Assembly (NCBI GenBank): GCA_040390725.1
Contig: JAZJXT010000001.1
Coordinates: 152,586-216,585 of the forward strand
DNA from: Patescibacteria group bacterium
GTDB taxonomy: Bacteria; Patescibacteriota; Minisyncoccia; Phycocordibacterales; UBA9973
Length of the DNA stretch: 64,000 nucleotides
Reading direction: 5' to 3'
The number at the start of each line of letters is the position of its first letter. Position 1 is the stretch's first letter. Position numbers and translations under genes: made by a program. Of the stretch, positions 2,266 through 26,998 are shown piece after piece. The notes beneath the pieces were generated by a model, which saw only the letters and a list, made by a program, of their open reading frames with translations, had not been told where the DNA came from and ran no database searches.

Positions 2266-2281
2266 CAATAACAATAACAAT

Positions 2282-6963: not shown

Positions 6964-6977
6964 ATTATTCAGTTTTG

Positions 6978-7367: not shown

Positions 7368-7368
7368 T

Positions 7369-7459
7369 GCTGGAGTGGCGGAATTGGTATACGCGCTAGT
7401 CTTAGGAACTAGTACCGCAAGGTTTGAGGGTTCGAGTCCCTCCTCCAGCACAATTGTAA
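7369..7459 (+). tRNA. tRNA-Leu (anticodon UAG), type II; CCA not encoded
   Basis: Acceptor GCTGGAG/CTCCAGC, Leu-type D-arm GCGGAATTGGTATACGC, anticodon stem CTAGT/ACTAG with loop CTTAGGA, long variable arm. Confidence 0.8.
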
Positions 7460-7461
7460 AA

Positions 7462-7785: not shown

Positions 7786-7867
7786 GTGTGTAGTGAATTG
7801 TGAAGATTTTCGCCTGCGGGCACTGGCCCCGTTTTGTCCGCCAGAAAATTTTCACAATTCATGAAAC

Positions 7868-9397: not shown

Positions 9398-9409
9398 TTT
9401 ATTTTCTTT

Positions 9410-9880: not shown

Positions 9881-9937
9881 ACCATTTCAATATATACTAC
9901 TTTTATGCGAAAATCAACCAAAAAACCAAATAAAATC

Positions 9938-11041: not shown

Positions 11042-11052
11042 GTGTAAATAAT

Positions 11053-11916
11053 ATGAAAGAAGCAGATTTTAACCAATTAAATAAAGATTTTACTGAAGCT
11101 CAGGAAAAAGCAAACAAAGCTATCAAGCCAAATGCTAAAGATTTAAAAGTTCTCGACGACGCAAGGGGTTCTTTTATTAAGGCTGCACGCTTGGATTATA
11201 TTAAGACTCGTGAGTTGCAACTCTCAGAAGCGCAAAATTTAAGTCTTCCTAATGCCGTTGATAAAAAAAAATATAATACTCAGCAATCCCAAAAAGAAAT
11301 AGATCCGGAAAAATTAGAAAAAGAAGTGTGTGATATAGCACGGGAATTGCTTCATAGATTACCTGAATGTACAGAGGCAGAGGTAAATAATGCAAAAATT
11401 TCCATAATTACAAAATTGCCACCTTCTGAATTAAAAGATTATAAAAATACAAGCGAGGTTAATCAAGGGTTTGGAAAATGCTCATATAATTCAAAAACAT
11501 TTGCTGTTGATTATATGGAAAAACAGGAAAAACCAAAAGTACAGCTTCTCGGCGGGCAATATATTATGGAGAATTTTTCTTTTTCGGATGTTCACAATCC
11601 CAGGTATGAAGCCATTCATATTTTATCAGGGAAATATGAAGACAACGAAAATAATGCAGACAATCGTCGTTTCCCAGATGTCAGGGACATTATGTACTTT
11701 CTTAATCTGGAAAAAGATAAAATTCCAGAAGAAATGAAAGTAAAAGGAAAAAAGTACTATTTTCCAGGGTCATTTTTTTATAATAAATATAATACCGCTC
11801 ATCTTTTTTGTTTAATATGGAATGGCGAGGATTTTGAGTTAAGATCAGAAGCACTAAAGGGGGATCTTATGAATGATGATGTTATTGTTCTTATTGCTTC
11901 ATCTAAAAATAAATAA
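11053..11916 (+). CDS. Hypothetical protein
   Basis: Long ORF with no recognisable motif; start chosen at MKEADF. Confidence 0.4.
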   Translation: MKEADFNQLNKDFTEAQEKANKAIKPNAKDLKVLDDARGSFIKAARLDYIKTRELQLSEAQNLSLPNAVDKKKYNTQQSQKEIDPEKLEKEVCDIARELLHRLPECTEAEVNNAKISIITKLPPSELKDYKNTSEVNQGFGKCSYNSKTFAVDYMEKQEKPKVQLLGGQYIMENFSFSDVHNPRYEAIHILSGKYEDNENNADNRRFPDVRDIMYFLNLEKDKIPEEMKVKGKKYYFPGSFFYNKYNTAHLFCLIWNGEDFELRSEALKGDLMNDDVIVLIASSKNK

Positions 11917-11952
11917 TTTTACAAAAAAATAATAGGGGAGTATAATTGAATT

Positions 11953-12534
11953 ATGGATATAAAAGAATTAAATAGGACACAAATGATCATGTTGGCTTTA
12001 CTTTTGAGCTTTGTCACTTCTATTGCCACGGGGATAACTACAGTGACTTTGATGCAACAAGCACCGAGTTCTGTAACTGTACCTATTAATCGTATTGTCA
12101 GGGAGACAGTTGAAAAAGTAGTACCGGCGGATACCTTGAATAAGATTCCAGCATTATCAACAGATCAACAGCAATTGCTCGAAGACTTGAAAGCTATCAA
12201 GCCTCTCACTGTTTCTTTATTTTTAAAAGGCATGAAAGATGATGGTAGTGATGACAAAATTTTGGGCACCGGATTGTTTTTAGGTAATGACAAAGTCGTG
12301 ATAGCTTCAGTAATATCTGCACCAAAAGAAGGCGAGGTGTACGTAGTAAAAAGTGTTTTAGGCGAACAAAAGATTTTAAAAGTTACAGCTGAGAAAGATT
12401 TTACAATTGTTGAACTTGTAAATAATGACACTACTGTTACTCCTGATGCTGGTAAAAAAACTGATACCACCACAGCGCCTGCCGGCACGACTACCACACC
12501 GGATACAACTCAAAATACAGCACCTGCTCAGTAG
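11953..12534 (+). CDS. Hypothetical membrane-anchored protein with a Thr-rich C-terminus
   Basis: 193 aa with an N-terminal TM and a C-terminal TTTAPAGTTTTPDTTQNTAPAQ tail. Confidence 0.45.
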   Translation: MDIKELNRTQMIMLALLLSFVTSIATGITTVTLMQQAPSSVTVPINRIVRETVEKVVPADTLNKIPALSTDQQQLLEDLKAIKPLTVSLFLKGMKDDGSDDKILGTGLFLGNDKVVIASVISAPKEGEVYVVKSVLGEQKILKVTAEKDFTIVELVNNDTTVTPDAGKKTDTTTAPAGTTTTPDTTQNTAPAQ

Positions 12535-12578
12535 ATTTAGGTATTTGACTTTTTATTATTATATGTTATATTATAAAT

Positions 12579-15251
12579 ATGCCTCCATTAAATAAATTTA
12601 CAACAAAAGCCAAAGACGCAATAAAAAAGGCTCACGAGCTGGCCATTGAGCGCGGGCAAAATCACGTGTCTTCTTTGCACCTACTCGCTTCGCTTTTACT
12701 CCAAGAAGAAAGTATGGTGAATTCTATTTTAGATAAATTGGAAATAGATGTAATGCTTTTGACTGACAATGTTTTGGATTCTATTGAATTACCGGAATCT
12801 CGCAGTACTCTTTCACCGGCTTATCAGATTTATTTGAATCCTGACTTGGCGCAAGTCATAGAGCTTTCAGCAAAATTAGCAGAATCATTAAAGGATGATT
12901 TTGTTTCGACCGAACATCTTTTTATCGCGATATTAGACGTGCCGAGTGAAGCACGAGAGACCTTGGCGCGTTTTAGAATACACAAAGATCCTGTGATGAA
13001 AGTTTTAGAAGAACTTCGCAGTCAAAATATCACTGATGTTTCAGAAACTAAAAAGTTTCGATTCTTACCGAAATATACTCGCAATTTGAGCAAGCTCGCA
13101 AAGGAAGACAAGCTCGACCCTGTCATCGGACGCGACAATGAAATAATGCGCATAATGCAAATCCTTTCTCGAAGGACAAAAAATAATCCTATCTTGATAG
13201 GTGAGGCCGGCACCGGTAAAACTGCCGTAGTAGAAGGCCTCGCGCAAAGGATTGCTAAAAATGATGTCTCTGAATCTTTGAAAGATAAAGAATTAGTTTC
13301 GCTTGATTTAGGTTCTTTGATTGCCGGTACAAAATATCGTGGAGAGTTTGAAGAACGCTTGAAGGGAATCATGAAAGAAGTAGAACGCGCTGATGGAAAA
13401 ATAATTTTATTTATCGACGAGATACACACTATAGTTGGCGCAGGAGGTGCAGAAGGCACCATGGATGCTTCAAATATGTTGAAGCCTGCTTTAGCTCGCG
13501 GAGAATTGCGCGCAATAGGGGCTACTACTTTGCGCGAATACCAAAAACATATTGAAAAAGACCCCGCCCTCGCAAGACGTTTTCAGCCTGTATATATTGA
13601 TGAGCCTAGTATTGAGGATGCGATTGCAATTTTGCGCGGATTAAAAGAAAAATACGAACTTTTTCACGGTGTGCGTATCACTGATGATGCGATTCTTTCT
13701 GCGGTGAATCTTTCTTCACGATATATTACAAACAGATTTTTACCAGACAAAGCAGTGGATTTGATCGATGAAGCATCTTCTTCTTTGAAAATTGCATTGG
13801 AAAATAAACCACCTGTCCTAGAAGAAGCGCACAGAAAAATAATGCGTTTGGAAATTGAAAAAGAAGCATTAAAAAAAGAAACTGAAAATAAAGATGCCAA
13901 GAATCGCGTAAAAGATATCGATAAAGAAATAGGCAACCTTCATGAAAAAACAAAAGAGCTCGAATTAAAATGGCAAAATGAAAAAACAATCGTCATAGAA
14001 ATTCGTGCTATTAAAAAAGAATTAGAATCACTTCGTCTAGAAGCCGAGAATGCCGAAATGCGCGCCGATCTTTCTCGCGCCGCAGAGATTCGTTATGGTA
14101 AAATTCCTGAATTAAAAAAGGAACTTGAAATAAAACTTCTTCGTTTAAAGAAATTACAAAAATCTCGCAGGATTTTAAAAGAAGAAATTACTGCGGAAGA
14201 TATTGCCGAAGTTGTAGCTCGTTGGACAGGTATTCCTCTTGTAAAAATGCTCGAAGAAGAACGTGCAAAACTCGAGAGGATGGAAGGCGAACTCGCAAAA
14301 CGAATAGTCGGTCAAGAAGAAGCCGTAAAAAGAGTTGCGGATGTTATTCGTCGTTCGCGCGCGGGTATTTCTGATCCAAACAGACCTATCGGTTCATTTA
14401 TTTTTCTTGGTCCTACCGGTGTGGGTAAAACAGAGCTCACAAAGGCTTTGAGTCAGTTTATGTTCAATGATGACAGAGCACTTATCCGTGTGGATATGTC
14501 TGAATATATGGAAAGACATTCTACTTCGAAACTTATCGGTTCGCCTCCGGGTTATGTGGGACACGATGAAGCTGGACAGCTCACTGAGGCAGTGCGTCAC
14601 CGTCCATATTCAGTGATACTTTTTGACGAGATTGAAAAAGCGCATCCGGAAGTTTTCAATATGCTTTTACAAGTTCTCGATGACGGCAGACTGACTGATG
14701 GAAAAGGCCGAGTAGTTAATTTTAAAAATACAATAATAATTTTGACTTCAAATATCGGTTCGCAATTTGTGGAGAAAATGGAATCCATCGGTTTTTCCAA
14801 TCACTCTGATGTTGAAAATTACGGCGCGATGAAAGAAAAAGTGACCGAAGCGTTAAAGGATCATTTTCGTCCTGAATTTTTGAATCGGTTGGATGAAGTT
14901 ATTATTTTTGATATTTTGCCGGAGAAAGCTATCAAGGAAATTGTAGGCTTGCGTGTGAAAGTCGTTGAAGACCGCCTGGCTACCAAAGGCATTAATTTCC
15001 AAATTTCAAATGATGCTTTGGCCTACCTCGCAAAAGAAGGCTACAATCCGCATTACGGCGCGCGACCATTAAATAGACTTATTCAAAATAAAATTCTTAA
15101 TCCTGTAGCTTCACACATTATTTCCAACGGCGTAAAGAAAGGGGATACAGTCTTTGTGTCAGTAAAAAATAACGAGCTTGTTATTGAAACTAAGAAAAAT
15201 AAAATCAAAAGCTCGATGAAAGTAAAAACCGCCTCGCCATATGCGGTATAA
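12579..15251 (+). CDS. clpB: ATP-dependent chaperone ClpB
   Basis: 890 aa: Clp N-domain, NBD1 Walker [10 protein letters not shown], a long middle coiled coil, NBD2 Walker [10 protein letters not shown] and the sensor motifs. Confidence 0.95.
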
Positions 15252-15259
15252 TTAAAATT

Positions 15260-17011
15260 ATGGGTAAATTTGATAAAGGTCCAATTGAAAATATTAATGA
15301 AGCGCATGATTATGCTAATGCTGAAAAGGCATTTAAGGAATTACCTGCATTTATAACTCTTGATAAGAGTGATCCAAAAATAGCAGAAGCTATTAATTTT
15401 CTTGCGGAAGAAGTGGCAGAACAATCGAGGTTGGCTTATATAAATAGGCATCAATTTGATCTTGGCAGTCGAGAAGCTATTAAAAAATCCAGAGAAATAA
15501 AGGTCGAGGCATCAGGTAGAGGAATTAAAACTAGCGCAAACCCTGGTAAGTATTTTAAAGCCATTTATGAAAGAGTAGCTAATGCAATTGATCAGATGAT
15601 TACTGACAATGCAAGATGGGTTTCAGTTCAAGAAAAAAAAGTTCTCGATATATTGCCTGAAGAAGATCCAAGAGAAATACATGATTTTTTTGGGCATGGA
15701 TTAAAGATGTTTTTTCTTCAGCAATTTAGATTAGAAAGTTTGCAGAGTAAAGAACATAGTAAGGAAAAGGTTTCTATTTCTCTTCAGGATCCTCAATATA
15801 TAAAGGATCAAATTTTTGCTTACAGCTTTGATTTTATTCAGTCGTTAAAAGAGTCAGCAAGAGAAGAAGTTACACCTAGGCAAGCCTTGCGACTTGCTGA
15901 GTTAACTTATCAATATAATCCCGGCGTACTGCAAGAATTTATGAAAAAGTATCCGCAAATTGAAAAAGGCGTTATTTTAGTGGTTTTGACCGCTTATCGT
16001 AATCCGGAAGAATTTCTTAATTCTTACATTACTAGAGTTGAAGAATTGACGAAAAAGTATAAAGGTAAGGTTGGTAAAGGTGTAATCAGTCAAGCAGCTT
16101 TAGGTTATGCTCCGACTAAAAAGAACCCTAATAATTCTGAAAAATTTATTGAGACATATATGTTAGAGGTAATTAGGTTGCGGGGTTTATATCCTGGTGT
16201 CAGTAATACTGTCCTGCATGATGCTGCTAGTAATCATCCTAATAGTAAGGAAAATCCTAGGAATTCCGAGAATTCTCTTGATTCATATTTATTAGCATTA
16301 AAAACTTTGTCAGCAAATTATCCAAAAGTAGATACACATGTTATTCAACAATTTATTTTAAAATATCGAGCTAATGCAAAAGATGTTATTGATAGATATA
16401 TAAACAAATTGCCGGAATTAATGAAAAAATATAAAGAACTTGGTGTTAATAATTATGCAATAAGATTTATTTGTATGTCTACTCCTTCAACTAAATATCA
16501 TCCAGATAGACCAGAGAAAAATCTCGATTCTTATATTGAAAAGTTAGATGATCTGAGGAAAAGGTATGGAAAAAATGAAAATAAAAAAGATGAAGGTGTC
16601 GATGATATTGTTTTAAAATATGCTATTTTTGCGAATTTGAGCAATTCTGAAGGTTATATTAAAAATTATATTCAGTTTTTGGGTGAATTAAAAAAGAATT
16701 ATGATGGTGTTGTTGATAAACGAGCACTTAATCATGCAAGTCGTAGATATTGTCTCAAGGAAGATGGGCTTGAAAAAGCTAAAAATTTTCTTAATAAATA
16801 TATTACTGAAGTTGAAAGATTGTTGAAAAAATATTTAGGATTTGAAAAAGATACTACTCTATACGCCGCGCTTAAACATCCAGATGACCCTGATACTTAC
16901 ATTGAAGAATGCCAAAAAGGTCTTCATCCAAAAGAAGAACAAGAAGCCGATTTAAATAACCCAGATGTTATTGGTGATTTATCTGAGATTGATATTGAAA
17001 ATATTGAATAG
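15260..17011 (+). CDS. Hypothetical helical-repeat protein (degenerate roughly 55-aa repeats of the form ..SYI..L.EL.KKY.G..)
   Basis: 583 aa with about eight degenerate repeats visible by eye (YITRVEELTKKYKG, YINKLPELMKKYKE, YIEKLDDLRKRYGK, YIQFLGELKKNYDG, YITEVERLLKKYLG). Confidence 0.5.
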   Translation: MGKFDKGPIENINEAHDYANAEKAFKELPAFITLDKSDPKIAEAINFLAEEVAEQSRLAYINRHQFDLGSREAIKKSREIKVEASGRGIKTSANPGKYFKAIYERVANAIDQMITDNARWVSVQEKKVLDILPEEDPREIHDFFGHGLKMFFLQQFRLESLQSKEHSKEKVSISLQDPQYIKDQIFAYSFDFIQSLKESAREEVTPRQALRLAELTYQYNPGVLQEFMKKYPQIEKGVILVVLTAYRNPEEFLNSYITRVEELTKKYKGKVGKGVISQAALGYAPTKKNPNNSEKFIETYMLEVIRLRGLYPGVSNTVLHDAASNHPNSKENPRNSENSLDSYLLALKTLSANYPKVDTHVIQQFILKYRANAKDVIDRYINKLPELMKKYKELGVNNYAIRFICMSTPSTKYHPDRPEKNLDSYIEKLDDLRKRYGKNENKKDEGVDDIVLKYAIFANLSNSEGYIKNYIQFLGELKKNYDGVVDKRALNHASRRYCLKEDGLEKAKNFLNKYITEVERLLKKYLGFEKDTTLYAALKHPDDPDTYIEECQKGLHPKEEQEADLNNPDVIGDLSEIDIENIE

Positions 17012-17065
17012 GAAATCTTATAAAAAGATGCAAAAAATTTAATTTTGTGGTATTTTGTATTGCAT

Positions 17066-17148
17066 GCGTCGGTGGTGGAGTGGTCTATCACAACAGACTG
17101 TAAATCTGTCGCCTTCGGGCTTCGTAGGTTCGAATCCTACCCGGCGCA
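17066..17148 (+). tRNA. tRNA-Tyr (anticodon GUA), type II long variable arm; CCA not encoded
   Basis: Acceptor GCGTCGG/CCGGCGC, anticodon stem-loop CAGACTGTAAATCTG as in bacterial tRNA-Tyr, variable arm CGCCTTCGGGCTTCG. Confidence 0.8.
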
Positions 17149-17220
17149 CAAGAATTATACACTCAATATCCACTTTTATTTTGTATATCTATTGTGTATC
17201 TGTGCAATTTATACTAAAAT

Positions 17221-19068
17221 ATGAATATGAGTAAATTTAATAAATTTTATTTAAAAGGACTTATTTTTAGTTTGTCATTTTTAATATCAAGTACGCCGTT
17301 TTTTACATTTGCCGCTTTTCATCCAGGAGATACTTTTAATCCAAATTGTTCACCGGTTGATCCGGATTGTACTGTATTGATGAGTACATCGAGCTGGTCT
17401 GCTGTCAGCGCCAAGCCGACAACTGTCGCAGGTTTTGGTATTACGGATGCATTTACTGGAAATTATTCCGACCTCACAAACAAGCCGACACTTTTTTCCG
17501 GAGATTATAATGACTTAACAAATAGACCGACTTTATTTTCTGGAAATTATTCTGACCTTGTCGGTACGCCTCCTCCAGTATCTGTAACAATTAAAAATAC
17601 TTATGTCGTGGACGATGAAGCCGCACGAGATGCTTTGACCGGTGTTTTGTCGGGAGATGTGGCAGTCCTGACAAATTCAAATACTACATATATTCGCACA
17701 CAAAATGATACTTGGCAGCAACTTTTAACATCGAGTACAAATGCAGTGGATTCTGTAAATGGCAAGACAGGAGTCGTGAGCTTAAATTCGGATGACATAG
17801 CTCAAGGTGCTACTAATAAATATTTCTCTGGAAATTATTCTGATTTAACAAATCTTCCGACTTTATTTTCTGGAGATTATAATGATTTAACAAACAAGCC
17901 TACTTCATTATCATTCGATGGTAATTTCTCAAGCCTTGCCAATAAGCCCACAACACTCGCAGGGTATGGCATAACTGATGGTAATAGTGGCAGTCCTGAT
18001 TGGTCCAGCATAACAGGTAAGCCAAGTTTTGCAACAGTGGCAACCAGCGGTTCGTATTCTGATTTAACAAATAGACCTACTTTATTTTCTGGAGCATATT
18101 CCGACCTCACCGGTAAACCAAGTTTATTTTCAGGAAGCTACACAGATCTCACAAACAAGCCGACATTATTTGATGGTAATTTCTCAAGTTTAACAAACAA
18201 ACCCACAACACTCGCAGGGTATGGCATAACTGATGGTAATAGTGGCAGTCCTGATTGGAGTTCTATTTTAAATAAACCAACGACTCTTTTGGGCTATGGT
18301 ATTACAGATGCATTAAAAACAACAAATAATCTATCTGATTTAATTAGTGCTGGAACGGCTAGAACTAATTTAGGATTAGGAAGTTTGGCCACACAATCAG
18401 GAATTTTTTCCGGCACTTCTTCCGGTACAAATACCGGCGATCAGACTATTACACTTACAGGAAATGTGACGGGTTCAGGCACCGGTTCATTTGCGACGAC
18501 CATTGGGTCAGGAGTAGTTACCAATGCCATGTTGGCTGGAAGTATCGATCTCACTTCAAAAGTTACCGGGAATTTACCGATTACAAATTTGGTTTCAGCT
18601 ACAAACAGAGATGCCAGTCACTTCTTGAGAGGAGATGGTACATGGCAGAGCTCTACGACTACAAGTGTTCCTAATAATGTTAAAAATTCTACTGGTACTG
18701 CAGCTGTTGCACTCGCAACCACTGAATCACAAGTCACCACTGTAGCTATTACTCCCTCTAGTGCTTCTAATAGAATTATGATTACAGGATTTCAACAATT
18801 TGATAAATCCGCGACCACTCCTGTCACGACTGATACAGTGCGAATAGAAAGAGGTGGTACGGCTTGTGCGACTGGTTCTACTCAAGTAGGTGTGGACGCA
18901 GGCGCTAATTCTAAAGGAGCTGCTACTGATAAAAATAATGTAGGATATAGTTTTGTTGATAGTCCGGCTACTACAAGTGCTACGACTTACCGTGTTTGCG
19001 TTGTCGGAAGTGCTGTAAACAGCTCTGCTACTAATTACTCGATAGTTGTTGCTGAAGTAGGGCCATAA
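17221..19068 (+). CDS. Secreted repeat protein with about 15 copies of a 13-14 aa (G)xYxDLTNKPTLFSG motif (phage-tail-fibre-like) and a Ser/Thr-rich C-terminal domain
   Basis: 615 aa with a signal peptide; repeats such as GNYSDLTNKPTLFSGDYNDLTNRPTLFSG and KPTTLAGYGITDGNSGSPDWSSI alternate; the C-terminus ...LSDLISAGTARTNLGLGSLATQ continues into a beta-rich domain. Confidence 0.55.
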   Translation: MNMSKFNKFYLKGLIFSLSFLISSTPFFTFAAFHPGDTFNPNCSPVDPDCTVLMSTSSWSAVSAKPTTVAGFGITDAFTGNYSDLTNKPTLFSGDYNDLTNRPTLFSGNYSDLVGTPPPVSVTIKNTYVVDDEAARDALTGVLSGDVAVLTNSNTTYIRTQNDTWQQLLTSSTNAVDSVNGKTGVVSLNSDDIAQGATNKYFSGNYSDLTNLPTLFSGDYNDLTNKPTSLSFDGNFSSLANKPTTLAGYGITDGNSGSPDWSSITGKPSFATVATSGSYSDLTNRPTLFSGAYSDLTGKPSLFSGSYTDLTNKPTLFDGNFSSLTNKPTTLAGYGITDGNSGSPDWSSILNKPTTLLGYGITDALKTTNNLSDLISAGTARTNLGLGSLATQSGIFSGTSSGTNTGDQTITLTGNVTGSGTGSFATTIGSGVVTNAMLAGSIDLTSKVTGNLPITNLVSATNRDASHFLRGDGTWQSSTTTSVPNNVKNSTGTAAVALATTESQVTTVAITPSSASNRIMITGFQQFDKSATTPVTTDTVRIERGGTACATGSTQVGVDAGANSKGAATDKNNVGYSFVDSPATTSATTYRVCVVGSAVNSSATNYSIVVAEVGP

Positions 19069-19078
19069 TTCATTGTAA

Positions 19079-19936
19079 ATGAAAAGAAAAATTATTTTTA
19101 TTTTAATAATGTTGTGTATTGTGCCTTGGGTTTCTTTTGCATCTTCGACTGATGGCATTATTGATTCTGATTCGGCACATCATTATGCTTGGAGTGAAAA
19201 TTACGGTTGGTTTAATTTTTTTGCTAATCAAGGTGATATTCATGTTACCGACTCTGTGCTTACCGGAAATATTTGGAATACAAATATAGGTTGGATAAAT
19301 TTGTCGCCAAATAATTCCGGAGTTAGGAATGATGGGGAGGGGAATCTTTCAGGATCTGCTTGGAATACAAATATTGGATGGGTTAATTTTTCAGGAATTA
19401 CTATAGATTCCAATGGATTATTTCATGGATTTTTAACTGTTACAAATGCCGGTAGGATAACTTTTGATTGTGATCATTGCAGTGTCAAAACTGACTGGCG
19501 CCCGGCAAGTGTTCGCAATGTTGTTCAACAGAATAATGTTCAGGCGAATACAGGTGTTAGAAATAGCGGAAATATTCTTGCTAATCAGACTACAAGTCAA
19601 ACTAATTCTACGGATACAAGTCCTGCCTCAACTCCTGAAACTTCCACACCTCCGTCTGTCATGGCACAAGAAATTATTCCTGCCGGTGACATTTCTTTTA
19701 ATGCTCCGACTGCAACTGAATCTATTAAAAATAATGCCCCAGTGGCAGGAAATATCACTTCAGGAATTACTGAAGTATCAGATCAAGCCCCTTCGCTTTT
19801 TGATGTTACTGCAGAGCCAGTTTTACAAATAAAAAAACAATATTCCTTTTCTCCCATTACTATTTCAGTTTTAGCGGGATTATTATTGGCCCTACTTGCT
19901 TTATTGGCCATTAAGAAATTTTCAAATTTTAAATGA
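19079..19936 (+). CDS. Secreted protein with W.N.NIGW.N.S repeats and a C-terminal TM anchor
   Basis: 285 aa: signal peptide, repeats AWSENYGWFNF / IWNTNIGWINLS / AWNTNIGWVNFS, a Ser/Thr/Pro linker and a C-terminal hydrophobic anchor. Confidence 0.5.
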   Translation: MKRKIIFILIMLCIVPWVSFASSTDGIIDSDSAHHYAWSENYGWFNFFANQGDIHVTDSVLTGNIWNTNIGWINLSPNNSGVRNDGEGNLSGSAWNTNIGWVNFSGITIDSNGLFHGFLTVTNAGRITFDCDHCSVKTDWRPASVRNVVQQNNVQANTGVRNSGNILANQTTSQTNSTDTSPASTPETSTPPSVMAQEIIPAGDISFNAPTATESIKNNAPVAGNITSGITEVSDQAPSLFDVTAEPVLQIKKQYSFSPITISVLAGLLLALLALLAIKKFSNFK

Positions 19937-20796
19937 AATCTAAGATAATTTTATTAAATAGTTTCGTGGGTATTTATTTATTTTTTTTGATGATAGGTTT
20001 TATTTTTACTCCGTATGTTGTATCTGCTCAAGAAAGTATAGAAAGGAATGCCACAATAAATGCAGGCAGTAATGGTATCGTGGAAAAGGTGGCAGCAGGA
20101 GAACTCTTGCCTGTTTCTGTTAAATTATCAAATTTTGGAGGAGGCAAAAGTGTAGATGTTTTAATTCAATATGAAATTTTTTCTGACAAGGGAGAGAAAA
20201 TTTATTCTACAAATGAAACCGTGGCAGTAGAGACTACAGCTAACTTTGTTAAAATAATACAAATACCATACGGAACAGCACCGGGGACTTACACAGCCAA
20301 AACTTCTATTATTTACGACGGACAGCTCGTTCCCGCTACTACTCAATTTAATTTTAAAGTTGAGCGAAAAATTCTAGGTTTATTTGAAAGCGCTTTCTTT
20401 TTATACGGAGGTATTACGATTTTTGTAAGTATTTTTATGGTTTTATTTGTGCATCTTTTGACTAGACATAACCGCAAGGTTAGATCTAGTCCGATTGATT
20501 ATTTTGATATTCCCCGCAACGAAAGAACTTTTTATGAAATTTTAAGTGATGTCATAATGGAAATGCGCGAACGTGTAGGTGATAAAGCTATTGATATTGC
20601 AGCAGGTGTCGAGGGACTAAAGATTGATAAAAAATCCGGAAGAGTATTGTCTCTTTCCAGGGATCCTGCGAAAATTATTTCTGACTTAGTTTCAGCTTAT
20701 GAAAAGTTGCTTGGAATAAAAGTTTTGTCTTTGGTGGACCGTACAGGACTCGAACCTGCCACCCCCTCATTGCAAATGAGGTGCTCTACCAGATGA
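19933..20796 (+). CDS. Hypothetical membrane protein; the 3' end (about 60 nt) overlaps tRNA-Ala antisense
   Basis: 287 aa; the start overlaps the upstream stop (ATGA). The last roughly 20 codons are the reverse complement of the tRNA-Ala gene. Confidence 0.4.
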   Translation: MKSKIILLNSFVGIYLFFLMIGFIFTPYVVSAQESIERNATINAGSNGIVEKVAAGELLPVSVKLSNFGGGKSVDVLIQYEIFSDKGEKIYSTNETVAVETTANFVKIIQIPYGTAPGTYTAKTSIIYDGQLVPATTQFNFKVERKILGLFESAFFLYGGITIFVSIFMVLFVHLLTRHNRKVRSSPIDYFDIPRNERTFYEILSDVIMEMRERVGDKAIDIAAGVEGLKIDKKSGRVLSLSRDPAKIISDLVSAYEKLLGIKVLSLVDRTGLEPATPSLQMRCSTR

Positions 20797-20807
20797 GCTA
20801 ACGGCCC
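20735..20807 (-). tRNA. tRNA-Ala (anticodon UGC), G3:U70 present; CCA encoded (to 20732)
   Basis: Acceptor GGGCCGT/ACGGTCC with G3-U70, D-arm AGCTCATCTGGTAGAGC, anticodon loop TTTGCAA, T-arm GGCAGGTTCGAGTCCTGTA. Confidence 0.8.
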
Positions 20808-20843
20808 GTATTATTTTATCAATCAAACTAGCCTATACCCATA

Positions 20844-20886
20844 GTTGCTCTCACGAGGCGCTACAGATGAGTTAACGGCCCGTATT
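20844..20886. repeat. Partial duplicate of the tRNA-Ala 5' half plus upstream flank
   Basis: gctctcacgaggcgctacagatgagttaacggcccgtatt versus the tRNA-region gctctaccagatgagctaacggcccgtatt. Confidence 0.65.
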
Positions 20887-20977
20887 GCTTAACTAAAAAA
20901 CCTAACTAACCCATTCTATAACATTTTATTAAAAATGCAAATTTTTATTTTCGAATTTTTGTGTATAATAGACAATT

Positions 20978-22006
20978 ATGCTTTATAAATTTTTTACTAA
21001 TTCAGAAAGAGCCTGGCAGGCAATGCTCGAAGAGGTTAAGCTTGCTGAGCAATCTATTTATTTAGAAATGTACACTTTTGTGGATGATATTAAGGTTTTT
21101 AATTTTTTGAAACTTTTTGAAGAAAAAGCTAAAAAAGGAGTTGGGGTAAAAATAATTTTAGACTCTTTTGGCAGTTCTACTTTGAGTAAAAAAGCAATAT
21201 TAGGATTGCGTTCTTCTGGAGTAGAACTTCTTTTTCATAGTCATTTTTTTCACAAGACTCATCGCAAGATTTTATTAGTGGATGAAAAAACTGCATTTAT
21301 CGGAGGAGTTAATTTACATAAAAGTGCAAAGAGATGGGCAGATTTGGCCGTGCGGGTGCGTGGGGTTTTAGTACAGAGGATTCTCAGGTCTTTTGCTAAA
21401 GCTTATGCTGATTGCGGCGGAGAAGATAAATACTTATTGAGCCTTAGAAAAGAAACAAAATTTTCAAAAGCCAGGACTTGGCTTTTAGAGCATTCTCCGT
21501 TAAAAAATAAATTTTATTTAAAAAAAATTTATAAAAAAGCACTTCATGAAGCTAAGGCGAATTGTATTTTAGTAAGTCCGTATTTTATGCCAAAGCTTTG
21601 GCTCGAGAGGGAATTGCACCAAGCAGTATTGCGCGGAGTAAGGGTGGAGATACTTATGCCAAATATTTCAGATCTTTTTTGGGTAGACAGAGTAAATCAT
21701 TTTTACATGAAAAAGATGGCAGAGTGCGGAGTTGTTTTTTATTTAGGACGTAAAATGAATCATGCCAAAATATTAATAGTTGATGAAAAAGAAGCATTGG
21801 TGGGTTCTAATAATTTAGACATTTTATCTTTTGAATTTAATACCGAAATTGGTATTTTTATAAAAGACGAGAGGGCTGTGGGTCAAGTTTTAGCAATTAT
21901 CAATAATTGGAAAAAAGAGTCTGTATTATTTGATCCTAAAACTTACAAAAGAAAATGGTTTGACTATATTTTATCGCCTATTTTTCGCCTGTTGTTTTTT
22001 TTGTAA
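20978..22006 (+). CDS. Phospholipase D superfamily protein (cardiolipin synthase-like) with two HKD motifs
   Basis: HRKILLVDEKTAFIGGVNL and HAKILIVDEKEALVGSNNL both fit the H.K....D motif. Confidence 0.75.
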   Translation: MLYKFFTNSERAWQAMLEEVKLAEQSIYLEMYTFVDDIKVFNFLKLFEEKAKKGVGVKIILDSFGSSTLSKKAILGLRSSGVELLFHSHFFHKTHRKILLVDEKTAFIGGVNLHKSAKRWADLAVRVRGVLVQRILRSFAKAYADCGGEDKYLLSLRKETKFSKARTWLLEHSPLKNKFYLKKIYKKALHEAKANCILVSPYFMPKLWLERELHQAVLRGVRVEILMPNISDLFWVDRVNHFYMKKMAECGVVFYLGRKMNHAKILIVDEKEALVGSNNLDILSFEFNTEIGIFIKDERAVGQVLAIINNWKKESVLFDPKTYKRKWFDYILSPIFRLLFFL

Positions 22007-22083
22007 TTTCTGCTAGACTGGAAGTGTTCTTTAATTAGTAAAGAAACATTCGGGAGTAGCTCAGCGGTAGAGCGATCGCCTGT

Positions 22084-22646
22084 GGAAATTTCCTCCCTCT
22101 GGTATAATGTTCTTATGCCAGACAATAGGAAATATGCTGATAGACGCGAAGCACTTATTAAAGCTGTTGCAAAACGACGCAAGAAAATAAAAGTTCTTGC
22201 TGTCGAGTACAAAGGAGGCAAATGCCAAATTTGTGGATATATGAAATGTATCGGTGCTTTGGAACTTCATCATATTATTCCAAAAGATAAAAGTTTTGGA
22301 GTAGGTGATAAGGGATATACACGTGCATGGAGTATAGTGCAAAAAGAGTTAGATAAGTGTGCGCTTCTTTGTGCAAATTGTCACAGAGAAGTCGAGTCAG
22401 GCATTACGCAGCTTTCTATCGAAAGATAGATCGAAAACGAGGTGAATTCGGGGAAGCCCAAGCTTGTCATGAGCGGGTAATCCCGAGCCAAGCTCCGACG
22501 TAAGTCGGAGAAGGTGTAGAGACTATCCCGTAAGGGAGTAGTGTTCCAAATTTTGGAATCCGAAGCGCCTCGCTTCTAAGTCTTTTGAGTAATCAAAGGA
22601 TATGAAGATGATATAGTCCGTACCATTAGTAATAATGGAATAAACG
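22084..22646 (+). ncRNA. Group I intron (putative self-splicing) in the tRNA-Asn anticodon loop, carrying an HNH ORF
   Basis: It follows an exon-terminal U and ends in G immediately before the 3' exon. The P7-like pairing halves GACTA (about 22530) and TAGTC (about 22616) are present. The ORF sits in a 5' peripheral loop. Confidence 0.6.
22115..22429 (+). CDS. HNH homing endonuclease (intron-encoded)
   Basis: CQICGY...LELHHIIPK...CANCHREVE is a His-Asn-His/zinc-finger nuclease motif. The track start 22082 is a GTG inside the exon/intron boundary; ATG 22115 is preferred. Confidence 0.7.
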   Translation: MPDNRKYADRREALIKAVAKRRKKIKVLAVEYKGGKCQICGYMKCIGALELHHIIPKDKSFGVGDKGYTRAWSIVQKELDKCALLCANCHREVESGITQLSIER

Positions 22647-22691
22647 TAAGCGATTGGTCGTAGGTTCGATCCCTACCTCCCGAGCCAGTTA

Positions 22692-22728
22692 GCAAAGCAC
22701 CTCCTTAAGGGAGGTGCTTTGCTTTTTG
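22692..22728 (+). terminator. Rho-independent terminator after tRNA-Asn
   Basis: gcaaagcacctcc-ttaa-ggaggtgctttgc followed by ttttt. Confidence 0.6.
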
Positions 22729-22866
22729 TATCTCGGGAGAGAAAGCCAACTGCTTGGCTTTCGTGTAGGGAGCGAACAACGGAGCAATAAATTTTCAGTA
22801 GAAAATTTTGTGAGTTGGTGCCCAGACAAAATTTTTTGGCGAAAAAATTTTAGTCGAGGGAGATAC

Positions 22867-22881
22867 CCCTACCTCCCGAGC
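22867..22881. repeat. 15-bp direct repeat of the tRNA-Asn 3' end (ccctacctcccgagc), 180 bp downstream of the gene
   Basis: Identical to 22671-22685. The att-like duplication suggests an old or residual integration site. Confidence 0.6.
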
Positions 22882-22959
22882 AATTAAAATAACCTTAATT
22901 TGCAAGGATTATTTATGTATTCTTACGGGGTTTAAAATTTTTATGATATAATTCTTTTT

Positions 22960-23493
22960 ATGATAGAAAATAGCCAGATGAATGATGCAAAGTTTTCTCC
23001 AAAAAGCAACGATGTTGTTTTTACTAAGGGTCAAAAAATAAATGTTGAACTTACTGATGGTTCTTTGAGTGAGCGTACAGTAATAAACGTTCTTAATTCC
23101 CAGAAAGTAGCAGCTGTCATCGGGCTTAAGTTTGATATTAAAACCCCTATACCAGTATTAATTTTAGACAAAAAAATACCGGGAGGTGCTCTTGCGCATT
23201 ACCATCAAAATTTAGATGTTATTTTTGCATATAATGATACAAACCAAAATGTTATGTGTCATGAAATAATTCACTCATTAGCAATAAAGAAGCCTATACC
23301 AGAAGAATTACAAAAGTTTTATGAAAAGGTGCTAGAAGAAATTCCAGATATAACTAATTTACAACCCAACTTTAGACAAAATATCCATGAATTTATTGCT
23401 GATGCGTATTCCAAGGAGGGTTTTATTAATAACCTTAAAAACCATGGGTTATATGAAGAATTTGAAAAACTTACAAAATATATCTTTGAGTAA
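22960..23493 (+). CDS. Hypothetical protein with an HEIIH (HExxH-like) motif
   Basis: 177 aa; ...NVMCHEIIHSLAIKK... is the only recognisable motif. Confidence 0.4.
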   Translation: MIENSQMNDAKFSPKSNDVVFTKGQKINVELTDGSLSERTVINVLNSQKVAAVIGLKFDIKTPIPVLILDKKIPGGALAHYHQNLDVIFAYNDTNQNVMCHEIIHSLAIKKPIPEELQKFYEKVLEEIPDITNLQPNFRQNIHEFIADAYSKEGFINNLKNHGLYEEFEKLTKYIFE

Positions 23494-23526
23494 TAATCGT
23501 GTGAAAGTTGTGAACACTGTGAATTT

Positions 23527-23788
23527 TATGTATCACCTATACATTTTAAAATGCGTTGATGAAACTTTATATACTGGAATTACCACAGATTTAAAACGCA
23601 GACTAAATGAGCATAATAGTACAAAACTTGGCGCGAAATATACTTCCTCTAGGAGGCCGGTCAAAATAGTTTATTCTAAAAAATTTAAAAATAGGTCTTC
23701 TGCATCCAAGGAAGAATCTAGAATAAAAAAGTTAAAAAAAGTTGAGAAGTTGGAATTGATTAAAGAAGGCTATAAAAATAATATATAA
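23527..23788 (+). CDS. GIY-YIG nuclease superfamily protein (small, stand-alone)
   Basis: MYHLYILKCVDETLYTGITTDLKRRLNEHNS is a classical GIY-YIG N-terminal motif. The start is taken at ATG 23527, not the track start 23387. Confidence 0.65.
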
Positions 23789-23844
23789 ATTTAGGTATTT
23801 TTTGTTATTTTAATGGAAGTTTGAATTTATGCTATAATATAATT

Positions 23845-24252
23845 ATGAAAAAATTAGATTCACAAGAACAGCAAAAAAATACAAACAGTGGGGAAAATAT
23901 TGAAAAAATAAATTCATACATAGATACAAATAAAACTGTTAGTGGTTTAGAAAATAAATATAATATAGTTGGTAGAAAGTATAAAGATATTTTTGGTATT
24001 AAGCAACGTAGCCCATTTGAATACAGAGCTAGATTGAAAAATTATAAAGATACATTAATTAGACTGTCTAAAGATGAGTACAAAACACCAAGTTTAAAAA
24101 CTACGGATCAAAAATCAGCCAAGCATTGCCTCAATATCATTACTGATTTGGAGTTTTTTGCTAAAATACAATTAAATAATGCAGGTATTATTGTTGAAGC
24201 GCCGTTGCTTTCAAAACAAAAATATAAAGAATTATTTAATAGTAAGCAATAA
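23845..24252 (+). CDS. Hypothetical protein
   Basis: ORF only; Lys/Asn-rich. Confidence 0.35.
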   Translation: MKKLDSQEQQKNTNSGENIEKINSYIDTNKTVSGLENKYNIVGRKYKDIFGIKQRSPFEYRARLKNYKDTLIRLSKDEYKTPSLKTTDQKSAKHCLNIITDLEFFAKIQLNNAGIIVEAPLLSKQKYKELFNSKQ

Positions 24253-24271
24253 CCTTTCCTGCTTAAACAAA

Positions 24272-25060
24272 ATGAATCCTGAATTTAAACTTGCAAATGA
24301 AAAGTCGTTTCAGTCTCAAGAAAAACATGAAAAATTCCTGTCTTTTTTTAATTTGAATGAGTACGAACTTGCGGAGTTAAAAGAAAGAATCACTAAAGCA
24401 AAAGGCACCATAAGAATGTTCGTGCATCCATTTTTTGATTCTTTAGAGCCTTTTTCTCCGTTAACAACTCCAAAAAATACATTTTTGGGACCCGGGGCCA
24501 TATTTACACGTCTAATCAATTTATCTGATGACAAGACACCCCCTCAATTTATCCTAGAAGAACATGGATCAACTAAATTAGAAAAAATGACTAAAGGGAT
24601 AGTTAATCAAAAATTGTATATTATAGATACTCAGCCGAGTAGTGGTGTTTTGCACCCAGATGAAGCATTGCCTTCAGAGATAAGTAAGCTTTGTCCAAAA
24701 TTTGAGGGTAATCGTTATTACAGCAATGATAAAGATTATAAATTACAATACAACAAAGAACAAAAAATATATGAACAGAAAGTATTTGATTTTTTGGCTG
24801 AAAAATTAAAAAGCCTCGGGGTAGAAAAGGTGCTCATTGGAGGCATGTATTTATGGATCCATGATTTTAGGCGAGAAAGTCTCGATATCAATAGTGACTT
24901 TTTAGATGGTTGCTTATTTTCTCCTATTAAAAATTTAAGCAAGTATTTACAAGTTGAGCTCTCCAATTTTAATAAAAGTGGTTACAATGAGAGCCAAGGA
25001 AATAAATTTAAAAAAGCATTTGGAAAAAGTGTGGGACCCGAGCAACATATGATACAATAA
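24272..25060 (+). CDS. Hypothetical protein
   Basis: ORF of 263 aa starting MNPEFKLANEKSF; no recognisable motif. Confidence 0.4.
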   Translation: MNPEFKLANEKSFQSQEKHEKFLSFFNLNEYELAELKERITKAKGTIRMFVHPFFDSLEPFSPLTTPKNTFLGPGAIFTRLINLSDDKTPPQFILEEHGSTKLEKMTKGIVNQKLYIIDTQPSSGVLHPDEALPSEISKLCPKFEGNRYYSNDKDYKLQYNKEQKIYEQKVFDFLAEKLKSLGVEKVLIGGMYLWIHDFRRESLDINSDFLDGCLFSPIKNLSKYLQVELSNFNKSGYNESQGNKFKKAFGKSVGPEQHMIQ

Positions 25061-25078
25061 ACAACATCTTAGGGTGGC

Positions 25079-25549
25079 TTATTTCTCCTCCAAAATTCTA
25101 ATTATTTTATCCAATTTTTCGCTGTCTATGCGGGCTAGGTCTTTTTGCAGTTTTTCGATTTCGAGTTTTGCTTTTAGGTTTGTGTTGTAGTCATTTTGGG
25201 CTTGGTGGCGATCACGTTCATTTTGGCGATTTTGCGCCATCATTATGATAGGCGCTGCATAGGCTGCCTGTGTTGAGAAAATTAAGTTAAGTAAAATAAA
25301 AGGGTAGGGGTCCCAGTGGCTGATGTAAGCAACGACATTTAAAATCATCCACAAGATGACTATGATAGTTTGAATAATAATGAAATTCCAAGAGCCCATA
25401 TTGTTGGCTACAGAGTCCGCAATGCGATCACCGAAAGTCTGCGTGCTTTTATATTTTTCATGCCATGTTTTCTTGTCTTCCTGTCCAAGTACTTCTTTTT
25501 TTATTTCTTCCATATGCTTATAGTATATTACTATTGCCCAGAAATGCAA
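25079..25549 (-). CDS. DUF1003 family membrane protein
   Basis: ...DPYPFILLNLIFSTQAAYAAPIIMMAQNRQNERDR... matches the DUF1003 signature; the C-terminus is a coiled coil. Confidence 0.6.
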   Translation of the reverse strand: MHFWAIVIYYKHMEEIKKEVLGQEDKKTWHEKYKSTQTFGDRIADSVANNMGSWNFIIIQTIIVILWMILNVVAYISHWDPYPFILLNLIFSTQAAYAAPIIMMAQNRQNERDRHQAQNDYNTNLKAKLEIEKLQKDLARIDSEKLDKIIRILEEK

Positions 25550-25631
25550 AAGAAAATTATCGTTGTTGAATTATTTATCAAATTAGGGTATACTCATATT
25601 ATCTTATTAATTAACAAACAAAAATAATTTT

Positions 25632-25757
25632 ATGGCAAAAAGAGGAACAACACTTAGCATAAGGCCTAGATCAAGGCATGCAAAAAAGACAAAGAAGCGC
25701 TTGGCTATCAAAGGTGCAATGCTTGCAAAAAAATCTACAAAGAAGAGAGGTTAAAAT
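25632..25757 (+). CDS. Small basic protein (41 aa), unassigned
   Basis: MAKRGTTLSIRPRSRHAKKTKKRLAIKGAMLAKKSTKKRG lies in an otherwise empty 225-bp intergenic gap and is not in the ORF track (under 60 aa). Confidence 0.25.
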
Positions 25758-25774
25758 AAACAAGCTTTCTTGTT

Positions 25775-26998
25775 CTATAATTTTAAATTATTCTTGATGC
25801 TTTTTACAGCTTTCTCGATATCTTTTTTATGTCCGAAAGCAGAAAGGCGGATGTAGCCTTCGCCTTGTGAGCCAAAGCCCGAGCCGGGCGTAGACACTAC
25901 GTGTGTTTCATTTAAAAGTTTATCAAAAAATTCCCAAGAGCTCAGAGCATTCGGAGTTTTTACCCAAAGGTATGGAGCATTGTCTCCGCCATAAACTGTG
26001 AAGCCGAGTTCAGTCAGACCTTTTTTGATAATTTTTGCATTGTTCATATAATACGCAATCATTTTTTTGCTTTCTTTTTGTCCTGCGTGGGAGAGTACTG
26101 CAAGTCCGCCTTCTTGGGAAATATTTGACGCACCGTTGAAAGTCGTAGATTTAAAACGATGCCATAAGTTATTTATTTTACCCTTCTCAGTGCCTTCTAT
26201 GGCCAAGTCTTTGGGAACAATAGCCCAGCCTAGGCGCACTCCGGTAAAACCCGCCCATTTCGAAAAACTGCTTATTTCTATCGCGCATTTTTTTGCGCCC
26301 TCTATTTCATAAATACTTTTTGGTAAATTTTTATCAGAAATATATTCAGCATAAGCAGAATCAAAAATAATTACCGATTTATTTTTCAAAGCATAGTTCA
26401 CAAATTTTTTTAATTGTTCTTTTGTCGCCACTGCGCCGGTGGGGTTGTTCGGACTACAAACATAAATCAAATCAGTTTTTTCTTTTGGAGGAGTCGGGAT
26501 AAATCCGTTTTTCTCATTACATTCCATATAAATCAAACCCTCATATTTTCCATTTTTAAATTCTCCCGTCCTTCCTGCCATGACATTACTGTCCACATAG
26601 ACAGGGTAGACAGGGTCCCCGATGGCGACTTTATTGTCCAAGCCGAAAATATTTTGGATGTCTGCAGTGTCGCCTTTGGCACCTTCACTGATGAAAAATT
26701 CATCAATATCTAAATCCACTCCCATTTTTTTATAATAATCTACAAATGCTTTACGTAGGCGTGTATCACCCTGACCTATGCCATATCCTGTATATGTTTT
26801 TTCTTTGGAAAGTTTTTCTACGCCTTTTTTTAATCCCTTTATTATGGTTGGAGTTAGGGGTTCGGTAGTGTCGCCAATTCCTAAGCGCAGTATCTCAATA
26901 TCCGGATTTTTTTTCATAAAGTCTGCTGTGCGTTTTGCTATTTCTATGAAAAGATATCCTGCTTGCAGTTTGTCGTAATTTTTATTTATTGTCGTCAT
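25775..26998 (-). CDS. dapL: LL-diaminopimelate aminotransferase
   Basis: 407 aa; the N-terminus NKNYDKLQAGYLFIEIAKR and overall aminotransferase class I/II features; dapA and dapB are adjacent. Confidence 0.8.
   Translation of the reverse strand: MTTINKNYDKLQAGYLFIEIAKRTADFMKKNPDIEILRLGIGDTTEPLTPTIIKGLKKGVEKLSKEKTYTGYGIGQGDTRLRKAFVDYYKKMGVDLDIDEFFISEGAKGDTADIQNIFGLDNKVAIGDPVYPVYVDSNVMAGRTGEFKNGKYEGLIYMECNEKNGFIPTPPKEKTDLIYVCSPNNPTGAVATKEQLKKFVNYALKNKSVIIFDSAYAEYISDKNLPKSIYEIEGAKKCAIEISSFSKWAGFTGVRLGWAIVPKDLAIEGTEKGKINNLWHRFKSTTFNGASNISQEGGLAVLSHAGQKESKKMIAYYMNNAKIIKKGLTELGFTVYGGDNAPYLWVKTPNALSSWEFFDKLLNETHVVSTPGSGFGSQGEGYIRLSAFGHKKDIEKAVKSIKNNLKL

Follow-up and report, generated by a model that had tools for sequence, protein, structure and literature searches.

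A candidate phage-derived surface fibre and its putative barrel anchor in a Patescibacteria chromosome

What does a secreted protein made of phage tail fibre repeats do on the chromosome of a bacterium, and what could hold it at the cell surface? This question is raised by a locus of a Patescibacteria group bacterium, which we analysed within a window of 64,000 nucleotides (positions 152,586 to 216,585 of contig JAZJXT010000001.1; the coordinates of the cassette and its neighbours are those of the window). Three genes, here called P1, P2 and P3, form a tight cassette on the plus strand of this Patescibacteria chromosome at 17221-20796, according to the calls of open reading frames (ORFs). We regard it as probable, on balance, that the cassette builds a cellular surface fibre of phage derivation (P1), which would use its N-terminal motif to dock onto a barrel protein anchored in the envelope (P2) and would serve in attachment to a host.

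The source organism is tiny and probably depends on a host, and the P1-P2 pair is a possible grip on other cells. For ultrasmall Patescibacteria, the literature proposes that attachment involves type IV pili or one of a small number of putative adhesins in which VCBS, dockerin or fibronectin domains are present; our search of the literature on Patescibacteria attachment returned such pili and other adhesin candidates and no account of the pair. A bacterial surface fibre composed of phage receptor-binding modules is of a known kind, and its pairing with an anchor is apparently undescribed and widespread in Patescibacteria. If the pair works as proposed, it would be a concrete and testable candidate for the determination of host range in episymbionts and a clear instance in which cells have turned the receptor-binding proteins of phages to their own use, and it would provide a short sequence tag with which such proteins could be found in metagenomes.

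A cysteine-loop motif and its neighbouring barrel gene

The most informative feature of the locus, which the earlier sequence-only reading had missed, is a Cys-loop motif on the fibre protein (N-motif) that is paired with the barrel family of P2 across Patescibacteria. Residues 35-52 of P1 (PGDTFNPNCSPVDPDCTV) fit the pattern PGxTxNPxCxPxDxxCxV. The approximately 130 N-terminal residues of P2 after the signal peptide define the barrel family, whose profile P2 matches at E 5.5e-59. The family occurs almost only in records named as Patescibacteria lineages, and at least 549 barrel loci were found among species-representative genomes in a scan with a 7-sequence alignment (a 24-sequence alignment was too diverse). 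When 80 barrel loci from species-representative genomes were scanned with the pattern [PL][GNL]x[TSE]xxPxCxPxxxxCxV, and two further loci (L001 and L002) and the window were included, the motif appeared in 34 ORFs at 32 loci, of which 29 were among the 80 genome loci; similar fibre-barrel pairs are thus present in at least 29 other species-representative genomes. All 34 ORFs have a hydrophobic segment just before the motif and share the strand of the barrel gene, the gap to which is often 0-60 nt. We counted 31 N-motif ORFs in 0.95 Mb of barrel loci vs none in 1.09 Mb of ClpB loci from relatives. P1 conforms to this arrangement, having a hydrophobic N-terminus followed by the motif and a same-strand neighbour with an N-terminal W-rich barrel. 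At L001 and L002 the N-motif protein ends 3 and 17 nt before the barrel gene, respectively, and the secreted partners (894 and 1148 aa) share with P1 the N-motif, the repeats, ARTNLGLG and the small domain (four copies). Across L001, L002 and L005, the number of copies of this domain per partner protein ranges from 1 to 4.

Apart from the motif, the partner proteins have mosaic bodies that are unrelated to one another. Of the 33 N-motif proteins scanned, 11 (at other loci, not P1) contain Peptidase_S74, which acts as an intramolecular chaperone in endosialidase and tail fibres. Six N-motif proteins match a PHROG tail fibre family and others match PHROG tail spike, virion structural and pectin-lyase families; YadA_head repeats, a GDSL lipase and a laminin-G-like lectin domain were found in single proteins each. 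What is conserved across Patescibacteria is a proposed socket (the barrel) and its proposed plug (the motif), and the bodies are swapped among tail-fibre, tailspike, lectin and enzyme modules. Such free swapping would suit a role in recognising varied targets, most plausibly the surfaces of hosts or prey. The same diversity bears on the idea that the fibres form a protective or structural coat, similar to the hair-like nap of BclA on Bacillus spores, as a barrier against phages or host defences. Although the combination of an anchor and a fibre resembles the logic of the exosporium nap (BclA and ExsFA/BxpB), bodies that are so highly diversified, some with lectin-like, tailspike or enzyme modules, would be expected of recognition proteins more than of a uniform coat, and three alternative fibres stand at one locus (L015); we therefore consider a coat quite unlikely.

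It is also conceivable that the two genes are adjacent but their products independent, P1 being a secreted or loose fibre or lectin and P2 a separate ligand- or glycan-binding surface protein or adhesin, with the linkage reflecting co-regulation. The absence of an anchor of their own from P1 and its relatives argues against this, as do the conservation of the N-motif as the sole common part of unrelated fibre bodies, its occurrence only beside barrel genes, and the uniform strand and many short gaps described above. Independence would fit with the nearest folds of the barrel, which are ligand-binding eight-stranded barrels (hemophilin, YceI, avidin-type), with the approximately 64% of the 80 barrel loci that have no detected N-motif neighbour, and with the many long barrel proteins (590-850 aa) that have other domains and a different, apparently conserved downstream gene of about 120 aa. 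Taken together, we judge independence unlikely, and the docked fibre is followed further below.

Other barrel loci show arrangements of their own. At L015, three tandem N-motif genes (2173-7857 of that locus; 659, 568 and 533 aa) with near-identical motifs precede one barrel gene (7911-9101), and the one N-motif protein inspected there has a body unlike that of P1. Long-form barrel proteins of 590-850 aa, which often have a C-terminal membrane helix in a W..DWKT motif, are encoded at many barrel loci (for example L012, L013, L017, L022, L028, L039, L051), with an ORF of about 120 aa approximately 0-60 nt after the gene; the two together may represent a second, different type of cassette in the barrel family. 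Eight barrel loci (L044, L045, L053, L065, L067, L075, L078, L082) are in records titled Bacteroidales or 'uncultured Gammaproteobacteria'; the contigs may belong to Patescibacteria and have been mis-binned, or else the family truly extends beyond the group. On two unrelated contigs, a Cupin_2 gene lies directly upstream of the N-motif fibre gene (L002, 4093-4590; L167, 7920-8429) with histidine kinase genes nearby, an arrangement that may reflect a regulated unit; no Cupin_2 gene of this kind is present in the window.

Phage-like repeats and the predicted head of P1

The sequence-only reading had likened the repeats of P1 to those of phage tail fibres, and the likeness was borne out by tblastn and PHROG matches. 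The repeat region matches 38 phage records (27-68% identity over 15-44% of P1), in which the annotation of the matched genes reads tail fibre, minor tail or structural protein. The phages include Synechococcus S-H34, Ralstonia phiRSL1, Pseudomonas PA5oct and relatives, Vibrio CHOED and Arthrobacter phages, and for two of the records the matching genes were confirmed to lie inside phage genomes. PHROG profiles match the repeats, and residues 125-201 match PHROG tail, minor tail and virion structural families with E values from 2e-5 to 8e-3. Where about 15 repeats had been estimated, we counted 13 units that fit [FYW][SNT][DSA][LIV]xx[KRLT]P, mostly at 14-residue spacing, which is close to the estimate and far above the expectation by chance (mean 0.014, maximum 1 in 5000 protein shuffles). 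Ten of the units are of the YxDLTNKPTLFSG type, with (A/L)G(Y/F)GITD after four and SGSPDW before two. The TNLGLGSLATQ segment that had also been pointed out was found at residues 382-392, in a region (residues 366-475) that holds NNLSDL..ARTNLGLG and SGTNTGDQTITLTG modules.

These sequences are common beyond the barrel loci. The repeat region of P1 is shared with more than 4500 proteins (of 8000 candidates scored), and 2976 representative proteins match P1 at E <= 0.001, mostly over residues 366-475 and often with several copies each. The 14-residue YxDLTNKPTLFSG repeat is present in thousands of phage and bacterial proteins, yet it has neither a Pfam model nor a solved structure. At the DNA level, the copies in P1 are 62-78% alike apart from one 94-nt pair of D2 copies in repeat block 2 (17910-18003 and 18165-18258), which is 90% identical and, to judge from the letters, is a recent internal duplication. 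Tandem Repeats Finder detected no DNA tandem repeat within the genes, because the copies have diverged to this extent.

P1 resembles phage tail fibres in its 14-residue repeat, GYGITD units, SVNGKTG segment and ARTNLGLG module, and in its mosaic, shuffled architecture with a variable tip; the relatives of P1 at other loci share with them the Peptidase_S74 intramolecular chaperone and tailspike modules. Unlike phage tail fibres, P1 begins with a signal-peptide-like N-terminus and the cellular N-terminal motif instead of a virion-attachment domain, is encoded amid housekeeping genes, and has a partner gene that was not found in viral contigs.

The AlphaFold model of P1, a monomer built on a 32-row alignment, is confident in two places only, namely the small domain (residues about 120-172, predicted local distance difference test (pLDDT) score 86-94) and residues about 500-615 (pLDDT 70-91). 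The C-terminal domain is confidently predicted as a TNF/C1q-like head and is the probable receptor-binding tip. Structural comparison of the head gave values of 9.6 for the C-domain of Chlamydia Pgp3, 8.7 for the Photorhabdus TNF-like lectin, 8.5 for the Cyanopodophage Pan3 needle, 8.0 for the Cyanophage A4 tail fibre, 7.9 for BclA, 7.6 for the F-BclA tip of ENA fibres and 7-8.3 for several TNF and C1q family members. The sequence-only reading had named a lack of similarity to fibre folds as the result that would speak against it; the similarity is there, because the structural matches of the head are all trimeric heads. Pgp3 has only 16% identity, a triple-helical coiled-coil stalk and no partner anchor, and common descent beyond the fold is unsupported. 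With Foldseek, the P1 model matched collagen-like proteins, the T7 tail fibre, the lambda Stf repeat and the Mtd N-terminal domain among viral structures, matches that are qualitative only because the TM-scores are low (0.06-0.15) and the stalk is unstructured in the model. A search for homologues of the tip gave weak matches to short proteins only (E >= 3e-7), and missed P1 itself and P0248.

The barrel of P2 and the proposed docking

P2 had been described beforehand as a secreted W.NTNIGW.N.S-repeat protein with a C-terminal anchor, in agreement with our results. It has three W-x-N-x-x-x-G-W-x-N-[FL] units, two of which are exactly WNTNIGW, and a hydrophobic segment at residues 260-278, and its barrel is predicted at pLDDT 92.8. 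The nearest folds to this barrel are eight-stranded barrels, namely hemophilin, the barrel domains of HpuA and TbpB, YceI and avidins; the identity to them is 5-14%, with no sequence-level match, and unlike them P2 has four Trp-rich hairpin repeats and comes from bacteria thought to be without an outer membrane. PDB sequence searches with profiles of the barrel, the small domain of P1 and P3 returned nothing credible. The barrel domain is N-terminal in all members of the family, and the relatives are fused to membrane or cell-wall anchors: a C-terminal membrane helix is present in 32 of the 79 family members in the loci and in 21 of 120 database matches, PG_binding_1 in about 25 of the 120, and SLH, SH3, LysM, dockerin or Ig-like domains at the C-termini of others. 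(PG_binding_1, Dockerin_1, SH3_3 and Pur_ac_phosph_N were named by the tool, and the remaining Pfam names are those which we take to apply.) In our reading, P2 is an envelope-tethered protein whose barrel forms the head of a Ser/Thr/Pro-rich stalk. We rejected the idea that P2 has wall-binding repeats of the choline-binding or GW type, as there is no Pfam match and a closed barrel is predicted.

The Tfa genes of phages, which encode assembly chaperones, follow the tail-fibre genes, and the order of fibre and partner in the cassettes, with their tight spacing, mimics such fibre-chaperone pairs. P2 might accordingly be a chaperone for the assembly of the fibre and not its anchor. This is highly unlikely in our view: whereas the phage chaperones match the variable tip, here a conserved partner co-occurs with a conserved N-terminus; the P2 relatives bear wall or membrane anchors on long linkers, which a chaperone would not need; and the eleven fibres with Peptidase_S74 bring an intramolecular chaperone of their own.

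In the docking mechanism that we propose, P1 would take the Sec export route (its first 32 residues resemble a Sec signal peptide) and would trimerise into a fibre, as suggested by its TNF/C1q-type head and the trimer-specific modules in its relatives, with a stalk that would be pieced together from modules which phage tail fibres use as well. The first mature residues would be a two-cysteine loop that inserts into or onto the barrel of P2; we infer that P1 is held in this way because the genes are linked and P1 has no anchor. P2 would in turn be held in the membrane by its C-terminal helix, with the barrel standing off on the Ser/Thr/Pro linker, and the TNF-like head of P1 would bind a target, most plausibly on another cell. 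P3, which putatively crosses the membrane once and has one domain outside and a conserved one inside, would be a third and less widely conserved component.

Two known systems are the nearest analogues of the proposed docking, BclA with its basal-layer partner and the peptide by which secondary receptor-binding proteins dock in Klebsiella podophages. In BclA of the Bacillus anthracis exosporium, with its partner ExsFA/BxpB, and in F-BclA of ENA fibres, a short N-terminal region attaches to a separate anchoring protein, as proposed for P1. Unlike BclA and C1q, the stalk of P1 has no GXY repeats and no Pfam Collagen match but the 14-residue YxDLTNKPTLFSG repeats instead; the proposed anchor P2, a beta-barrel protein that carries a membrane helix, is unrelated, and the organism is non-sporulating. 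In the branched receptor-binding protein systems that podophages of Klebsiella have (KP32, K11, KP34), according to a published account, a conserved N-terminal docking peptide on interchangeable receptor-binding proteins plugs into a domain of another protein (PMC13352976). The logic would be the same as that of the N-motif and the barrel, but the podophage system belongs to a virion and its sequences are unrelated.

A wider form of the proposal can be offered only tentatively, namely that the tethered barrel and the disulphide-loop motif are a lineage-wide plug-and-socket display, on which interchangeable fibres and spikes captured from phages are mounted, including self-chaperoned and depolymerase-like bodies. 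If this were so, swapping or stacking of fibre genes (as at L015) would change the host cells that are recognised, as phages shift their host range.

Several points weigh against the docked-fibre reading. An N-motif gene was found within about 8 kb at only 29 of the 80 genome barrel loci (approximately 36%), although some contigs are truncated, and because of this low share the barrel may have a broader or different job. The similarity of the motifs tracks that of the barrels (Mantel r = 0.357, reached in 0 of 2000 permutations), a correlation that can arise from shared ancestry alone and that co-evolution would also give. The signal peptide of P1 was judged by eye and hydropathy only. The sequence-only reading had named Pfam families of fibres as a means of recognition, but P1 has no Pfam family even at E <= 1, including Phage_fiber_2, Collagen and Peptidase_S74, and Pfam and NCBIfam together gave nothing useful for P1 or P2. 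The repeat stalk has low confidence in the model (pLDDT 35-67), which neither confirms nor refutes a fibre shaft because the model is a monomer of a potential obligate oligomer. PDB sequence searches with P1 and with a profile of the repeat matched the repeat in no solved structure, and for this reason the fibre form of P1 is deduced from its relatives and the fold of the head. Finally, no cultured organism or experiment ties any member of the system to attachment, for which the literature lists other adhesin candidates.

Genomic setting of the cassette

The features of the cassette are summarised in Table 1. The three ORFs lie where the sequence-only reading had placed them, with tRNA-Tyr and tRNA-Ala on either side as identified by ARAGORN, and P3 is a membrane protein as it had said, with one N-terminal and one central hydrophobic segment by hydropathy. 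The overlap of stop and start codons that it had assigned to P1 and P2 belongs to the next junction: a gap of 10 nt separates the P1 stop from the P2 start, and it is the P2 stop and the P3 start that overlap, in ATGA. P1 shares 100% identity with the NCBI entry 'MAG: hypothetical protein V4439_00905 [Patescibacteria group bacterium]', whose contig has 274,923 bp, and this NCBI version begins two codons downstream (613 aa). For P2, the start at 19079 was preferred over a 275-aa database call because the homologues align from residue 1. Promoter-like and terminator-like sites around the cassette were no commoner than in shuffles, so that a single transcription unit is suggested by the gene spacing only.

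Table 1. Features of the cassette and its flanking tRNA genes, in window coordinates
Feature	Position	Strand	Basis or remark
tRNA-Tyr (GTA)	17066..17149	+	ARAGORN; 5' border of cassette
P1, putative fibre gene, 615 aa	17221..19068	+	ORF
P1 aa 1-32, signal-peptide-like N-terminus	17221..17316	+	Lys-rich start, hydrophobic core aa 14-32, ...TFA/AF; hydropathy and sequence by eye
P1 aa 35-52, two-cysteine N-terminal motif PGDTFNPNCSPVDPDCTV	17323..17376	+	proposed docking element
P1 aa 59-118, repeat block 1, 4 units, one then GFGITD	17395..17574	+	sequence; DNA repeat family D1
P1 aa 120-205, small beta domain (YVVDDEAARDAL...TWQQL), then SVNGKTGVVSLNSDDI	17578..17835	+	AlphaFold, PHROG
P1 aa 206-365, repeat block 2, 9 units, three then GYGITD	17836..18315	+	sequence; tblastn
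P1 aa 366-475, NNLSDL..ARTNLGLGSLATQ and SGTNTGDQTITLTGNVTGSGTG modules	18316..18645	+	sequence matches
P1 aa ~495-615, TNF/C1q-like jelly-roll head	18703..19065	+	predicted fold
P2, putative anchor gene, 285 aa	19079..19936	+	ORF
P2 aa 21-150, eight-stranded beta-barrel of W-x-x-N-x-G-W-I-N-F hairpins	19139..19528	+	predicted fold
P2 aa 151-259, Ser/Thr/Pro/Asn-rich linker	19529..19855	+	sequence
P2 aa 260-278, C-terminal transmembrane anchor, then KKFSNFK	19856..19912	+	hydropathy 2.81
P3, membrane protein gene, 287-aa ORF	19933..20796	+	ORF; conserved part ends ~aa 264, nt 20724
P3 aa ~45-145, putative outside domain	20065..20367	+	conserved block in alignment
P3 aa 155-177, transmembrane segment, then basic residues	20395..20463	+	hydropathy
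P3 aa 185-264, conserved putative cytoplasmic domain FYE.LSD.I..MR...GD.A	20485..20724	+	alignment
tRNA-Ala (TGC)	20732..20807	-	ARAGORN; convergent with P3

The setting is that of a cellular chromosome. Around the cassette, the window encodes ClpB, a 583-aa protein, tRNAs, an enzyme of PLD-like type, and nucleases of the HNH and GIY-YIG types; at four other loci (L001, L002, L167, L168) the neighbours include an ABC transporter, a protease, RecG, two-component, type IV pilus, sortase-pilin and GatC/amidase genes. A Pfam scan of the neighbours at these four loci and in the window found no capsid, portal, terminase, tail or integrase family, and neither the barrel nor the N-motif was confirmed in 2.9 million viral contigs (IMG/VR). 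P1 has an N-terminus that resembles a signal peptide and lies away from any phage genes in this neighbourhood, as would be expected of a protein that the cell itself secretes.

These data bear on a further explanation, in which the cassette is a prophage remnant or an active phage module consisting of a tail fibre, a lysis-type wall-binding protein and a holin-like membrane protein. Tail-fibre modules are indeed present in P1 and its relatives, the PG_binding_1, LysM, SH3 and SLH domains of the P2 relatives also occur in phage lysins, the locus lies at a tRNA and a synteny break, and HNH and GIY-YIG genes follow at 1.3-3 kb. However, all 34 fibre proteins have signal-peptide-like N-termini, while virion proteins assemble in the cytoplasm; the five sets of neighbours scanned lack capsid, portal, terminase, tail tube and integrase genes; the viral contigs gave no confirmed barrel or motif; flanking direct repeats are lacking and GC and GC3 (GC content at third codon positions) are ordinary; and the barrel fold has no enzyme-like match. 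A phage module thus has very little probability, and a prophage was ruled out on the basis of the absence of phage structural genes nearby, the export-type N-termini and the viral contigs.

The sequence-only reading had also taken the position between two tRNA genes as that of a genomic island. We compared the downstream region of ClpB among relatives, using 80 loci with ClpB at 68-89% identity, of which about 30 have at least 9 kb downstream and 12 were compared in detail. The relatives keep the whole upstream block, and tRNA-Tyr follows just after ClpB in 12 of the 12 scanned; beyond it, all 12 detailed loci have a different shared gene block, and the cassette, the 583-aa gene and the PLD gene were not found within 10 kb downstream of ClpB in the relatives. 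This places the cassette at a breakpoint of synteny beside tRNA-Tyr, and to this extent the island claim stands. Its other marks are lacking: none of the ten neighbours scanned with Pfam (7868-26998) is an integrase or recombinase, no direct repeat pairs the two borders of the cassette (the one repeat derived from a tRNA is outside it, at 20864-20904), and the composition is not shifted (GC 0.355-0.402 and GC3 0.224-0.267, within the range of the other 23 window genes; dinucleotide distance 0.097 vs 0.105-0.110 for the top windows). The lack of border repeats and the ordinary composition led us to reject a classical integrative island, and synteny may have been broken by a rearrangement on a larger scale and not by an insertion of 3.6 kb.

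P3 has a less regular distribution. Homologues directly follow the barrel gene at L010 (Doudnabacteria, 46% identity) and L038 (Magasanikiibacteriota, 44% identity), both of which also have an N-motif fibre gene upstream, so that lineages far apart share the order of all three genes; P3 is absent from most barrel loci. Residues about 45-145 are, to judge from the alignment, probably an extracellular beta-sandwich. The Pfam family Alph_Pro_TM matches P3 weakly (23.7 bits vs the cut-off of 24.5), and the cytoplasmic domain had no sequence match in the PDB. The P3 ORF extends 65 nt into the antisense strand of tRNA-Ala, its final 22 codons (20732-20796) being tRNA-Ala antisense, and similarity to the homologues ends at about residue 264, just before the tRNA.

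Other observations concern the surroundings. In a 41-nt direct repeat with 78% identity (20790-20830 and 20864-20904), the 5' end of tRNA-Ala and 23 nt on its upstream side recur 74 nt further upstream, before the PLD-like gene is reached; no second tRNA was called by ARAGORN at 20864-20904. The 583-aa protein between ClpB and tRNA-Tyr (15260-17011) has no signal peptide or Pfam family, appears by eye to be a helical repeat protein, and has its gene in none of the 80 related ClpB loci. The HNH (22082-22429) and GIY-YIG (23387-23788) nuclease genes, which follow the cassette at a distance of 1.3-3 kb, may be elements similar to homing endonucleases; the region around them has no synteny to the relatives. 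In the relatives of the window genome (L086-L130), the tRNA-Tyr just after ClpB is on either strand, which suggests repeated local inversions at the breakpoint.

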